Origin: a virus | Lineage: Duplodnaviria > Heunggongvirae > Uroviricota > Caudoviricetes | Reading direction: 5' to 3' (one strand) | DNA length: 10,350 bases | Virus record (IMG/VR): IMGVR_UViG_2617270945_000014 | In this document: piece after piece, positions 898-10,350 of the stretch | Layout of the letters: each line of letters starts with the position of its first letter | Numbering within the stretch: the stretch's first letter is position 1 | Notes under the pieces: generated by a model | Told to the model about the DNA's origin: nothing | Seen by the model: the letters and a program-made list of their open reading frames with translations, nothing else | The model's database searches: none | Position numbers and translations under genes: made by a program

Positions 898-2511
898 ATG
901 AGTCAGAAATACCTCATTCGCATCGCTGAGCTGGAAAGGCTGCTCTCTGAGCAGGCTGAAGCCCTCCGTCAGAAAGACCAGCAACTGAGTCTGGTTGAAG
1001 AGACGGAGGCCTTCCTGCGCTCTGCACTGGCACGTGCCGAAGAAAAGATCGAAGAAGATGAGCGAGAAATAGAGCATCTGCGGGCTCAGATAGAAAAACT
1101 GCGCCGGATGCTGTTCGGAACCCGTTCTGAAAAACTGCGTCGTGAGGTTGAACAGGCTGAAGCCCTGCTGAAACAACGCGAGCAGGAAAGCGATCGTTAC
1201 AGTGGGCGTGAGGATGACCCGCTGGTTCCCCGCCAGTTGCGACAGTCGCGCCATCGTCGTCCGTTACCGGCACATCTCCCCCGTGAAATATACCGCCTGG
1301 AGCCTGAAGAAAGCTGTTGCCCGGAGTGTGGCGGTGAGCTGGATTATCTGGGGGAAGTCAGCGCAGAACAACTGGAACTGGTGAGCAGCGCCCTGAAAGT
1401 GATCCGCACAGAACGGGTAAAAAAAGCCTGTACAAAATGTGACTGCATCGTTGAAGCACCGGCGCCGTCCCGCCCGATAGAGCGTGGTATCGCGGGCCCC
1501 GGATTACTTGCCCGCGTGTTAACGGGAAAATACTGCGAACACCTGCCACTGTATCGTCAGAGTGAAATCTTTGCCCGACAGGGTGTCGAACTGAGCCGTG
1601 CATTACTCTCCAACTGGGTTGACGCGTGCTGCCAGTTAATGACGCCGCTGAATGATGCCCTGTACCGTTATGTGATGAATACCCGCAAGCTTCACACTGA
1701 CGACACACCGGTAAAGGTACTGGCACCGGGCCTGAAAAAGACGAAAACAGGGCGCATCTGGACGTATGTCCGGGATGATCGCAATGCGGGTTCGTCATCT
1801 CCTCCGGCGGTCTGGTTCGCGTACTCATCGAACCGGCAGGGGAAACACCCGGAGCAACACCTCCGCCCCTTCCGGGGTATCCTGCAGGCGGATGCGTTCA
1901 CAGGTTATGACAGGCTGTTCAGTGCAGAACGTGAAGGTAGTGCGCTGACAGAAGTTGCGTGCTGGGCTCATGCCCGGAGAAAAATCCACGATGTATACAT
2001 CAGCAGCAAAAGTGCGACGGCAGAAGAAGCCCTGAAGCGAATCAGTGAACTGTACGCCATCGAGGATGAAATACGGGGATTACCAGAGTCAGAGCGTCTT
2101 GCAGCCAGGCAGCAGCGAAGCAAAGCGTTACTGACGTCGCTGCATGAATGGATGGTGGAGAAGAATGGCACGCTGTCGAAAAAATCCAGACTGGGCGAAG
2201 CGTTCAGCTATGTACTGAATCAGTGGGACGCCCTCTGTTATTACAGTGATGACGGTCTGGCGGAGGTGGACAATAACACAGCGGAAAGAGCGCTTCGTGC
2301 AGTCTGTCTCGGAAAGAAAAATTACGTGTTCTTCGGTAGCGATCACGGCGGCGAGCGTGGAGCACTGCTGTACGGGCTGATCGGCACCTGCCGTCTGAAC
2401 GGTATCGATCCGGAAGCGTATCTGCGCCATATTCTGAGCGTACTGCCGGAATGGCCCTCCAACCGTGTTGACGAACTCCTGCCATGGAACGTAGTACTCA
2501 CCAATAAATAA
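898..2511 (+). CDS. tnpC: IS66-family transposase (orf3/TnpC)
   Basis: 537-aa ORF with an N-terminal coiled-coil/leucine-zipper-like region, a CxxC…CxxC zinc-finger-like motif (CPECGG…CTKCDC) and a DDE-type core, which is the IS66 transposase architecture. The stop lies 30 bp before the right IR end. Confidence 0.9.
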   Translation: MSQKYLIRIAELERLLSEQAEALRQKDQQLSLVEETEAFLRSALARAEEKIEEDEREIEHLRAQIEKLRRMLFGTRSEKLRREVEQAEALLKQREQESDRYSGREDDPLVPRQLRQSRHRRPLPAHLPREIYRLEPEESCCPECGGELDYLGEVSAEQLELVSSALKVIRTERVKKACTKCDCIVEAPAPSRPIERGIAGPGLLARVLTGKYCEHLPLYRQSEIFARQGVELSRALLSNWVDACCQLMTPLNDALYRYVMNTRKLHTDDTPVKVLAPGLKKTKTGRIWTYVRDDRNAGSSSPPAVWFAYSSNRQGKHPEQHLRPFRGILQADAFTGYDRLFSAEREGSALTEVACWAHARRKIHDVYISSKSATAEEALKRISELYAIEDEIRGLPESERLAARQQRSKALLTSLHEWMVEKNGTLSKKSRLGEAFSYVLNQWDALCYYSDDGLAEVDNNTAERALRAVCLGKKNYVFFGSDHGGERGALLYGLIGTCRLNGIDPEAYLRHILSVLPEWPSNRVDELLPWNVVLTNK

Positions 2512-2519
2512 GCGTCAAT

Positions 2520-2541
2520 ACGGTGCTCCGTTGACGCTTAC
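2520..2541. repeat. IS66 right terminal inverted repeat (extent approximate)
   Basis: Reverse complement of 2511-2541 is gtaagcgtcaacggagcaccgtattgacgct, which matches the left end GTAAGCGT and is imperfect thereafter. Confidence 0.6.
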
Positions 2542-2763
2542 AGAGTAAGGAAGCCTGACGGAGATTATCCAGTGACGATAATCGAGGCTGAGGGCTTTCT
2601 TAATCTCGTATCCGCGTCTGCGGTAGTTATGAATTAGCCATTCGGCCTGTTCTTCAGTACATGGTGGGTGTTGGTACCAGTCGGTTTTAAATGCGTGTGA
2701 ACGCCGCCCATGCCGGATGGCAAGGTCGGTATCAGAATTGTGAAATTTGGTTTTGTGCGCCAT
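2542..2763 (-). pseudogene. Prophage gene of unknown function, C-terminally disrupted by the IS66 insertion (possibly rem-like, by position next to hokD)
   Basis: Minus-strand ORF 2515-2763 runs from native DNA into the IS. The last 8 codons (VSVNGAPY) and the stop are encoded by the IS right inverted repeat (2515-2541), so the native C-terminus is lost. The rem-like guess comes only from synteny with K-12 Qin. Confidence 0.55.
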
Positions 2764-2834: not shown

Positions 2835-2862
2835 AAAAAAACAAAACCCGCCGAAGCGGGTT
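2835..2862 (-). terminator. Rho-independent terminator for minus-strand transcription, downstream of hok
   Basis: GC stem AACCCGC / GCGGGTT with a CGAA loop (2845-2862), followed on the minus strand by a U-rich tract (the A-run at 2835-2846 on the + strand). It lies 68 nt past the hok stop. Confidence 0.75.
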
Positions 2863-2930
2863 AAGTGCGGGTGCGTTGAGGATGCCTGACACATCAGAGG
2901 TGGCGAGGGATTTCTCCCCCGCCAGGTCTC

Positions 2931-3086
2931 TTACTCCTCAGGTTCGTAAGCTGTGAAGACAGCGACCTCCGTCTGGCCGGTTCGGAGTCGTACCTCGCAG
3001 AGGTCTTTCCTCGTTACCAGTGCCGTCACTATGACGGTTAAACAGATGACGATCAGGGCGATTAACATCGCCTTTTGCTGCTTCAT
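2931..3086 (-). CDS. hokD: Hok/Gef-family type I toxin (small membrane-depolarising peptide), HokD/RelF-like
   Basis: 51-aa product MKQQKAMLIALIVICLTVIVTALVTRKDLCEVRLRTGQTEVAVFTAYEPEE, recognised from memory as near-identical to E. coli HokD/RelF and close to Gef/HokC. It has one transmembrane helix and the conserved Cys. Start taken at the internal ATG (3084-3086) rather than the 70-aa in-frame extension. Confidence 0.9.
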   Translation of the reverse strand: MKQQKAMLIALIVICLTVIVTALVTRKDLCEVRLRTGQTEVAVFTAYEPEE

Positions 3087-3323
3087 AGCCTGCTTCCCCT
3101 TGCCTTTCGGCACGTAAGAGGCTAACCTACATTTGTGAGACATAGATTGGGCCTCAGATTAATGTTAAGCGTCTTGCAGGACGCGAAATGTTAACTGGGG
3201 CTTTTCTCTATCTGCCTTTCAGTGTTCATGCCTGAGACAGATAGCCTCAAGCACCCGCAGCCATTCTACTTAACTCACGTCACCTCGCCAATATGAAATC
3301 AATCAGAAAGGTGATCCATAAAA

Positions 3324-4010
3324 TCACTCCTTCTCTTCTTTTCCGTAGTGGAGTTGGCCAATTTTGATAAGAGGGCGTCCCTGAGATTTGCGGTGTAGAT
3401 TGGTATCGCGCAGAGAATACACACAGCCACAATATTCCTGCTGATAGAATTTTTCGCGCTTGCTGATTTCAATCATACGGGACGAGCCGCCCTGCTTGCG
3501 CCAGTTATAATCCCAGTACACCATACCCGGATAATGCGCAACAGCTCGCCGCCCACACTCGTTAACCTGCTGCATATTTTTCCAGCGTGAAATGCCCAGT
3601 GAACTGCTGATCACACTGAAACCATTTTCAGCAGCGTACAACGCTGTCCGCTCAAAACGCATGTCAAAACACATGGTACAACGGATCCCCCTCTCAGGCT
3701 CCCATTCCATTCCTTTGGCACGTTCAAACCAGTTGTCGGTGTCGTAATCAGCATCGATAAACGGCACGCCGTGTTGTTCAGCAAAGCGAATATTTTCATC
3801 CTTACGAATTAAATACTCTTTCTGAGGATGAATGTTCGGGTTGTAGAAAAAGATGGTGTAGTCGATTCCCGAGGCCTGAAGCGCCTCCATCACTTCACCG
3901 GAACATGGAGCACAGCAAGAGTGCAGTAGTAGTTTGTTTGCCCCGTTTGGGAGCTCCAATTTAGGCCGTTTGAAATCAGCAATAGTCATAAATATTTTTA
4001 TTGGGGTCAT
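3324..4010 (-). CDS. queH: QueH-like epoxyqueuosine reductase homologue (DUF208 family); start codon uncertain (3989 or 4010)
   Basis: 228-aa ORF with motifs recalled for the QueH/DUF208 family: N-terminal [27 protein letters not shown] and C-terminal [11 protein letters not shown] (Cys-rich Fe-S ligand pattern). Neither candidate ATG has a clear Shine-Dalgarno sequence. Confidence 0.65.
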
Positions 4011-9348: not shown

Positions 9349-9683
9349 TTCACCCTCCTGAGGGTTGGTGATTAAGGAGTTCTCCACGGGTGAGGTGGAG
9401 TGCGTGCGCCGGACACGGGTGAGCATCCGGCACTGACAGTTTACTGAAAGGATATTTCCCTGAAAAGTCAGACCATAACGCGAAAGCGCCCGGCGAGGTA
9501 GCTGGTTCATAGATAGCCTGTCGTTAAATTTTCGTCGACCGTGCGTTTCCGGTTGTGGCAATCCGCGAAATGGCGCGGCGGTAAGTATGGCGGGGTTATT
9601 CCTTCCCCCGTTGAGGACACCGGGTTGTCAGGTTGACCATACGCTTAAGTGACAACCCCGCTGCAACGCCCTCTGTTATCAAT

Positions 9684-9741
9684 TTTCTGGTGACGTTTGG
9701 CGGTATCAGTTTTACTCCGTGACTGCTCTGCCGCCCTTTTT
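9684..9741 (+). ncRNA. dicF: DicF small RNA (ftsZ-targeting sRNA of Qin/Kim-type prophages); 5' end approximate
   Basis: Sequence TTTCTGGTGACGTTTGGCGGTATCAGTTTTACTCCGTGACTGCTCTGCCGCCCTTTTT matches DicF as recalled. It ends in an intrinsic terminator and lies immediately upstream of dicB, as in K-12. Confidence 0.75.
9699..9741 (+). terminator. Intrinsic terminator forming the DicF 3' end
   Basis: GGCGG (9699-9703) … CCGCC (9731-9735) stem, followed by TTTTT (9737-9741). Confidence 0.65.
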
Positions 9742-9910
9742 AAAGTGAATTTTGTGATGTGGTGAATGCGGCTGAGCGCACGCGGAACAGTTAAAACCAA
9801 AAACAGTGTTATGGGTGGATTCTCTGTATCCGGCGTTAATTGTTAACTGGTTAACGTCACCTGGAGGCACCAGGCACCGCATCACAAAACTCATTGTTGA
9901 GGGCGCGATA

Positions 9911-10099
9911 ATGAAAACGTTATTACCAAACGTTAATACGTCTGAAGGTTGTTTTGAAATTGGTGTCACTATCAGTAACCCTGTATTTACTGAAGATGCC
10001 ATTAACAAGAGAAAACACGAACGGGAGCTATTAAATAAAATATGCATTCTTTCAATGCTGGCCCGTTTACGTCCGATACAAAAAGGATGCTGGCAATGA
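9911..10099 (+). CDS. dicB: Cell-division inhibitor DicB (MinC-dependent)
   Basis: 62-aa product MKTLLPNVNTSEGCFEIGVTISNPVFTEDAINKRKHERELLNKICILSMLARLRPIQKGCWQ, matching DicB as recalled. GAGGG lies 8 nt upstream of the ATG. Confidence 0.85.
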   Translation: MKTLLPNVNTSEGCFEIGVTISNPVFTEDAINKRKHERELLNKICILSMLARLRPIQKGCWQ

Positions 10100-10287
10100 A
10101 TACAGCATTTGCACTTGTTCTGACAGTTTTTCTTGTTTCCGGAGAGCCAGTTGATATTGCAGTCAGTGTTCACAGGACAATGCAGGAGTGTATGACTGCA
10201 GCAACCGAACAGAAAATTCCCGGTAACTGTTACCCGGTCGATAAAGTTATTCACCAGGATAATATCGAAATCCCGGCAGGTCTTTAA
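10096..10287 (+). CDS. ydfD: YdfD-like small lysis-associated membrane protein (63 aa)
   Basis: MNTAFALVLTVFLVSGEPVDIAVSVHRTMQECMTAATEQKIPGNCYPVDKVIHQDNIEIPAGL with an N-terminal transmembrane helix. Its start overlaps the dicB stop (ATGA at 10096-10099), and AAGGA lies 9 nt upstream. Confidence 0.75.
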   Translation: MNTAFALVLTVFLVSGEPVDIAVSVHRTMQECMTAATEQKIPGNCYPVDKVIHQDNIEIPAGL

Positions 10288-10350
10288 AACAGTTCCGTAA
10301 TAAATATCCGGTTTCATTCTTATATGCCAGCAATGGCAGGGATTTGTTCA

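Follow-up and report, generated by a model that had tools for sequence, protein, structure and literature searches.

A probable complete hok/mok/sok toxin-antitoxin cassette of the hokD/hokW subfamily in a Qin-like lambdoid prophage

The segment 3291..2835 (minus strand) very probably constitutes a complete hok/mok/sok type I toxin-antitoxin cassette of the hokD/hokW subfamily, located in the early-right (nin) region of a Qin-like lambdoid prophage (Table 1). It lies in a window of 10,350 nucleotides, the whole stretch of viral DNA that was analysed (IMG/VR record IMGVR_UViG_2617270945_000014). Every element of the cassette is present and conserved, and the arrangement and predicted folds of these elements are described below. 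A previous sequence-only reading of this DNA had left the mok/sok status of the locus unresolved. We can now place by sequence the mok frame (3143..2931, minus strand), the sok promoter (3100..3128, plus strand), and Sok (3135..3205, plus strand), and the comparison with R1 and other hok loci that had been proposed located all the features it was meant to find, that is, the tac and fbi elements, the mok frame, and the sok promoter.

Table 1. Features of the putative hok/mok/sok cassette and of the adjacent insertion element, in window coordinates
Feature	Position	Strand	Basis
IS66-family ORFs	83-520, 517-867, 898-2511	+	ORFs
Intrinsic terminator of hok mRNA (predicted), stem 2862..2845 plus T tract	2835..2862	-	Consensus scan; shared sequence
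Predicted full-length hok mRNA, ~419 nt	2838..3256	-	5' end by homology; 3' end approximate, within T tract
fbi (fold-back inhibitory element) CCUCAACGCACCC	2869..2881	-	Pairs with tac
3' UTR hairpin, likely protective 3' end of trimmed mRNA	2902..2923	-	All folds
hok (HokD-type toxin), 51 aa plus stop	2931..3086	-	ORF list, Pfam
mok ORF, 70 codons, in the hok frame with shared stop	2931..3143	-	ORF list; colinear with annotated mokW of 933W
Putative sok promoter: -35 TTGCCT (3100-3105), 17-nt spacer, -10 TAACCT (3123-3128)	3100..3128	+	Homology, conservation
dcb (GCCUC), alternative partner of mok SD	3118..3122	-	Folds; helix of RF01794 consensus
Putative Sok-type antisense RNA, 71 nt	3135..3205	+	End-to-end alignment with annotated sokW of 933W
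mok Shine-Dalgarno (SD) GAGG	3152..3155	-	Conserved GAGGC; aligned with R1
ucb / anti-SD AAGCCCCA	3196..3203	-	Pairs with tac in truncated form
Hairpin of tac stem (dyad 3206-3244)	3208..3244	-	Folds; first helix of RF01794 consensus
Partner of tac in nascent-transcript (metastable) hairpin	3228..3238	-	RNAalifold consensus
tac (translational activator element) GGGUGCUUGAGG	3245..3256	-	Pairs with fbi, ucb, or 3238-3228, depending on fold
Putative hok promoter -10 TAGAAT	3263..3268	-	Consensus scan; 6 nt before predicted +1
Putative hok promoter -35 TTGGCG	3286..3291	-	Consensus scan

The product of hok matches the Pfam family PF01848 (HOK_GEF) at 1.6e-22 and 79 bits (cutoff, 22), and the RefSeq records with an identical 531-bp sequence name it hokD/HokD. 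As the sequence-only reading had described, the coding sequence (3086..2931, minus strand) is followed by a terminator at 68 nt: a G+C-rich, terminator-like hairpin (2862..2845, minus strand) begins exactly at this distance past the stop codon and continues into TTGTTTTTTT. By itself, this terminator is not significant in a consensus scan (1 found versus 1.7 expected), although K-12 hokD and a Rac-type prophage have it with the same sequence in the same position. Between both, the hairpin of the 3' untranslated region (2902..2923, minus strand) is stable in the full-length as well as in the 3'-truncated folds, and if the final stem-loop of the truncated R1 mRNA (PMC9841398) is taken as a guide, it is likely the protective 3' end of the trimmed hok mRNA. 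The predicted 419-nt transcript has a fold energy of -173.7 kcal/mol (z = -6.7 against dinucleotide shuffles). Inside the coding sequence, the Tyr47 codon of hok (2945-2948, minus strand) and the GAA that follows it create UACG, the TadA recognition motif for A-to-I editing; a preprint describes the recoding of hokC, hokD, and hokE mRNAs from Tyr to Cys at the Tyr47 position.

Upstream of hok, the leader matches the Rfam family RF01794 from 3256 to 3081 (minus strand) with 120.5 bits (gathering score, 59; E value, 1e-27) over model positions 1 to 157 of 157, which contradicts the case, contemplated in the sequence-only reading, of a leader unrelated to hok-family mRNAs. Model position 1 maps to 3256. 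The block common to the window and the plasmid copies (3268..2869) starts exactly at the hok -10 and ends exactly at fbi, and homology with phages and plasmids begins at this -10 and not farther upstream. Moreover, in all related loci examined, whatever lies upstream, a -10-like hexamer ends 6 to 7 nt before the conserved GGG(U/C)GCUU 5' end. The family model, the homology block, and the conserved hexamer together point to a 5' end of the hok mRNA at about 3256. This end gives a predicted leader of 170 nt (3256..3087); the 237 nt (3087-3323) previously taken for the leader correspond to the QueH-hok intergenic distance, and the remaining 67 nt of this gap hold the hok promoter region. The two mRNA ends would remain perfectly complementary for 3 nt beyond the predicted +1 on its upstream side (UGC, 3259-3257; GCA, 2868-2866). 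This extension (2866-2874 / 3251-3259) is partly shared by 933W, is absent in other relatives, and is probably due to chance, but because of it the exact 5' end is uncertain by a few bases.

The putative hok promoter, TTGGCG-17-TAGAAT (3291..3263, minus strand), has 9 of 12 consensus matches, and its -35 falls outside the block conserved between genomic contexts. Since the -10 is conserved in all relatives and the plasmid homology block starts at this hexamer, we can assume that hok has its own promoter and appears to be transcribed from it. The sequence-only reading had proposed either a promoter and a Sok RNA belonging to the locus in 3087-3323 or read-through from the QueH-like gene; the first alternative stands at the level of the sequence, while the second is not needed. 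The QueH gene (3324..4010, minus strand; Pfam, 1.1e-65) is located upstream of hok, and no terminator was predicted in the scan of the gap between its stop (3324) and hok, so read-through could act as an extra input. An extreme version would have hok devoid of a functional promoter and antisense RNA of its own and transcribed only by read-through from QueH or the early-right operon, as K-12 hokD is from relBE. It would fit the missing terminator, the common orientation of hok, QueH, and the replication genes, and the fact that K-12 hokD has no leader of its own. Nevertheless, this is highly improbable, given that the -10 hexamer keeps a fixed distance to the conserved 5' end in every upstream context and marks the start of the phage and plasmid homology, that the layout of the sok promoter and hairpin is identical to that of the experimentally validated sokW, and that a 5'-extended transcript could not put tac at the 5' end, as required by the family structure. 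QueH itself is a QueH-type epoxyqueuosine reductase, a tRNA-modification enzyme, here phage-borne in the prophage early region and directly upstream of hok.

The mok SD (GAGG) lies 8 nt ahead of the mok ATG and aligns with the mok SD of R1, which is also GAGG (PMC9841398), and a GAGGC motif situated 6 to 10 nt before the mok ATG is conserved in all the loci compared. The R1-type plasmid locus likewise has an in-frame ATG 57 nt ahead of hok, as do most relatives (from Escherichia, Photorhabdus, Pantoea, Citrobacter, and Erwinia). Across relatives, the mok start and its SD are conserved, but the reading frame and its length are not. The ATG at the mok position is out of frame with hok or runs into an early stop in several loci (L003, L013, L014, L025, L027, L029-L032, L048, and L049), and in a Rac-type record the annotated mok (1631-1837) is in a different frame from hok (1689-1844).

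On the opposite strand, the hexamers and spacing of the putative sok promoter are the same as those of sokW in 933W/Sp5. In all the loci compared, the -35 is TTGCCT or TTGACC, the -10 is mostly TA(A/T)(C/T)CT, and this promoter block is the best-conserved part of the mok-hok interval; the R1-type version is TTGCGC-17-TATCCT. A generic consensus promoter scan misses it (only 7 of 12 matches, weak by consensus), and the assignment was made by homology and conservation, not by consensus strength. The predicted Sok spans the mok SD and start codon and folds into a 14-nt single-stranded 5' tail and a long hairpin (3149-3203) followed by UUUU (-28.1 kcal/mol; z = -4.9). We can therefore place on the sequence a putative cis-encoded Sok with its own promoter and a terminator hairpin over the mok start. 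Across the family, variation in an otherwise conserved leader is greatest in the Sok tail and the matching N terminus of mok. Such a variable tail would prevent cross-talk between hok/sok loci residing in the same cell.

The Rfam match is an annotation trap, as RF01794 is named "sok antitoxin" yet models the hok-sense leader (here 3081-3256, minus strand). Taken literally, a match reported on the minus strand with that extent would describe a 176-nt sok antitoxin gene at 3256..3081, and this reading can be practically discounted. The match is hok-sense and extends no farther than the hok start codon (AUGAAG). In 933W (L002), too, RF01794 matches the hok-sense strand (1521-1695, plus), whereas the sokW annotated there, of 71 nt, has the opposite orientation (1571-1641, minus). 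As the family matches the hok-sense strand in both the window and 933W, the model describes the hok mRNA leader, with Sok as its partial complement.

The folds predicted for the transcript contain the alternative pairings of a hok mRNA switch. In the full-length fold, tac (3256-3245) pairs with fbi (2881-2869) through 12 pairs (P = 0.97 to 1.0). In the 3'-truncated transcript (positions 1-363), tac is predicted to pair with ucb (AAGCCCC, 3203-3197) at a P of ~0.95, versus 0 in the full-length form, and this tac-ucb pairing is the first helix of the RF01794 consensus. The leader hairpin noticed earlier around the dyad 3206-3244 was also recovered, flanked by the inverted repeat arms 3197-3217 and 3235-3255, which enclose it. 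As for the mok SD, its pairing with dcb has a P of 0.63 in the full-length fold and 0.82 in the truncated one. It can also form 5 pairs with ucb, plus a conserved C.A mismatch, although here this helix is 0.5 kcal/mol above the minimum free energy (MFE) structure (P = 0.35), and in the full-length ensemble of the window allele ucb pairs with the G run of the hok SD (P = 0.62). Because the GGGG run of the hok SD AAGGGGA competes for the CCCC of ucb, the ucb-mok SD helix is not the MFE in the window. It becomes the MFE when the common hok SD allele is restored in the window sequence, and it is the MFE in 933W and L007 as well. The base responsible is 3098, which gives a hok SD AAGGGGA (3095-3101, minus strand) versus AAGGAGA in 933W, K-12, and most relatives. 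Applied to the R1-type locus, the same procedure reproduced the published R1 model (tac-fbi together with ucb-mok SD at full length, tac-ucb after truncation), whose description includes a metastable structure (PMC9841398).

For the comparative analysis, a search with a single Hok protein, with one genome per species, returned 47 loci, nearly all with a full-length leader, and the comparative set comprises ~45 loci from six genera. In the scored set (47, made up of the related loci, the window, and three controls), a complement of tac is found 45 to 56 nt past the hok stop codon in 43, the exceptions including a K-12-lineage hokC locus (L017) and a truncated contig. The outer tac-fbi helix is paired in 99.3% of cells, against 22 to 58% in slid controls, and its pair 4 covaries (UA, 13; CG, 8). 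This formal count covers the outer six pairs only, as the bulge position varies between lineages and the inner half of the helix does not fit into a single ungapped alignment; this half rests on duplex predictions for each locus. A matrix of duplex energies between cognate and noncognate tac and fbi elements was uninformative because of G-U wobble, by which U-type tac pairs with G-type fbi.

The RNAalifold consensus of 29 leaders has 30 pairs, 10 of them with double changes. It recovers the metastable tac hairpin (columns 3-13 with 19-29), with covariation at pair 4-28 (UA, 20; CG, 8) and pair 12-20 (AU, 12; GC, 9; GU, 8), as well as the helix between ucb and the mok SD, in which the C.A mismatch is conserved and the closing A-U/G-C pair covaries. 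The window sequence is compatible with all the pairs of this consensus and is able to form all those of the metastable tac hairpin. Compensatory changes across genera suggest selection on the hok RNA switch. Tandem hok leaders, two or three within 3 kb, were seen in one Enterobacteriaceae genome (L029; 771 and 1333) and in Photorhabdus temperata (L037; 1356, 1985, and 2603).

Copies of the 531-bp region with 100% identity are present in numerous E. coli chromosomes, and strain AR_0013 (NZ_CP032204, hokD at 3645923-3646078) is one carrier of this allele. A match to at least 80% of this query region was obtained in 3796 of 5426 complete E. coli genomes (~70%); the K-12 relE-hokD junction is found in 1165 of the 5426. 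In E. coli, its context is a lambdoid prophage, between QueH and DUF968/RusA/Q, which also carries a DicA/DicC-like switch, a YdaT-family gene, O- and P-like replication genes, DUF1627, and DUF977. In the window, a DicF small RNA was identified at 9685-9736 (plus strand; Rfam RF00039, 76.7 bits), and 9363-10350 is 97% identical to the dicF-dicB region of the K-12 prophage Qin, from which we can assign the host element to a lambdoid prophage of the Qin-like kind, in which the replication genes are retained. The other end of the window is occupied by a complete IS66-family element (1-2541), with terminal inverted repeats starting with GTAAGCGTAAAG at position 1, so that the window starts exactly at the IS end, and finishing in GTTGACGCTTAC at 2541. 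Similarity to an uninterrupted prophage (L001) begins at 2541. The insertion is ~300 nt downstream of the hok terminator and appears to truncate the 3' end of a neighboring small gene (ORF 2763..2515; a 90-aa hypothetical protein in L001).

The mechanism that we propose follows from homology with plasmid R1 hok/sok and Sp5 hokW/sokW, and it is by analogy with them that the transcript ends, processing, Sok instability, and killing are assumed. Experimental data on 3' processing, Sok decay, RNase III cleavage of the duplex, and killing come from R1 and, in part, from Sp5 hokW-sokW (PMC9841398, PMC8621323). The hok mRNA would start at ~3256, under its own promoter, and stop at the terminator near 2838. 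In the nascent transcript, the 5' tac would be held in a local hairpin, while in the finished mRNA tac would pair with fbi near the 3' end and ucb would cover a Shine-Dalgarno sequence, leaving a molecule that is stable, untranslated, and blind to Sok. Slow trimming from the 3' end would then strip the terminator and fbi, tac would capture ucb, and the mok start region would open, with mok translation permitting that of the overlapping hok. As long as the short-lived 71-nt Sok (3135..3205, plus strand) is made, it would base-pair across the ribosome-binding site and the start codon of mok, forming a duplex that would be destroyed. If Sok synthesis stopped, by loss or induction of the prophage, the stored mRNA would yield Hok, a 51-aa membrane peptide that would depolarise and kill or lyse the cell. 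Candidate roles for the cassette are prophage retention, help in lysis as reported for Sp5, and phage exclusion.

However, intact anatomy is not proof of activity, since the chromosomal hokA, hokB, and hokC gave no post-segregational killing and no rifampicin activation, according to work cited in a preprint (bioRxiv 10.1101/2025.08.07.668861). The locus might thus be an anatomically intact but physiologically silent passenger relic, from which hok mRNA and Sok may be made without killing or stabilising anything. The changed hok SD, which alters the predicted closed fold, and the damage already done to the prophage by the IS66-family insertion 300 nt downstream would be consistent with such a relic. 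We consider it rather unlikely, as all the regulatory elements are intact and match those of the functional Sp5 locus, HokD-type peptides are toxic on expression according to the literature, compensatory changes across genera point to selection on the RNA switch, and at least 80% of the region is matched in 3796 of 5426 complete E. coli genomes. A different trigger can also be envisaged for the complete cassette. Being inside the early-right operon, co-oriented with it, and with no terminator after QueH, it could be read through from pR. Upon induction, strong hok-sense transcription would collide with the convergent sok promoter and silence Sok, and the release of Hok would be tied to induction, as a lysis or abortive timer, instead of to DNA loss. 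We regard this as improbable; if true, it would provide a mechanism for the RecA-dependent disappearance of sokW RNA reported in Sp5, which is unexplained.

The element is of a known type in a known setting, with a relative annotated in the 933W record and the Sp5 copy tested experimentally in 2021, and it raises no new biological question. Its importance is mainly one of annotation. In the RefSeq records that contain this 531-bp sequence unchanged, the hokD coding sequence is the only annotated part, while the mok frame, the Sok RNA, and the mRNA switch elements can be placed to the base, and a Rfam "sok" match should not be read as the Sok gene, as the model represents the hok-sense strand. 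In addition, the reference hokD of K-12 appears to be 5' truncated, and ~70% of complete E. coli genomes have at least 80% of the region that holds the complete locus.

Among known systems, the hok/sok (parB) locus of plasmid R1 has the same set of elements and the same predicted switch, with tac-fbi pairing at full length and tac-ucb after truncation, and a ucb-mok SD helix with the C.A mismatch, which in the window competes with the pairing of ucb to the hok SD. Its mok also starts 57 nt upstream in frame, its sok promoter also lies between the mok and hok starts, and it also matches RF01794, although the score of the R1-type locus (87 bits) is below that of the window (120.5). The two Hok proteins share only 39% identity, and the Sok/target hairpin is 16 nt longer in the window than in R1. 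The R1 locus is on a plasmid and has been shown to cause post-segregational killing, whereas that of the window belongs to a chromosomal prophage.

The closest characterized relative is the hokW/mokW/sokW locus of the Shiga-toxin phage 933W and the Sakai prophage Sp5, with 92% nucleotide identity to window 3276..2859, from the hok -10 region to just beyond fbi. Order and spacing are shared (hok -10, tac, ucb, mok SD and ATG, sok -35 and -10, hok, 3' hairpin, and fbi), and the products are of equal size in both loci (Hok, 51 aa; in-frame Mok, 70 aa; Sok, 71 nt). In Sp5, hokW-sokW is a working toxin-antitoxin pair in which HokW is toxic (Takada et al., PMC8621323). Both RNAs were detected on Northern blots, with sokW at 71 nt; sokW expressed from its own promoter neutralises HokW, and a promoter-less sokW mutant unmasks the toxicity (PMC8621323). 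By our reading of the mutagenic primers used for this mutant (YO-421 and YO-422), they alter the sok -10 TAACCT (PMC8621323). The Sok of the window and sokW differ at eight of 71 nt, six of them in the first 16 nt (3135-3150, plus strand), and as the differences are concentrated in this recognition tail, both RNAs are probably not interchangeable. Other differences are the C terminus of Hok (FTAYEPEE in the window, FVDYESEK in 933W), the absence in 933W of the terminator hairpin used by the hok of the window, and the location. The 933W locus is flanked by L0139 and L0136, close to an end of the linear record and not beside replication genes, whereas that of the window is between QueH and the Q antiterminator region.

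K-12 hokD (relF), the third gene of relBEF in prophage Qin, is 98% identical over window 2837..3100 and retains the hok SD, the coding sequence, the 3' hairpin, fbi, and the terminator. The similarity ends 14 nt upstream of the hok ATG (window 3100), where relE lies directly upstream in K-12, so the hok promoter, tac, ucb, the mok start, the sok promoter, and Sok appear to be missing there, and the K-12 hokD region, used as a negative control, gave no RF01794 match. The earlier claim that K-12 hokD lacks sok/mok regulation of its own is thus borne out at the sequence level; no statement that it lacks the upstream elements was found in the open-access literature, and the claim rests on these alignments. 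No relBE was found in the window by the ORF list or the context annotation, in agreement with the sequence-only reading. We also considered the window locus as a hokD of the K-12 type, with relE upstream and no leader, mok, or sok of its own, and rejected it given the absence of relBE and the presence of a full leader. Judging from the aligned sequences, the window carries the complete form of the locus, and K-12 hokD is a 5'-truncated derivative.
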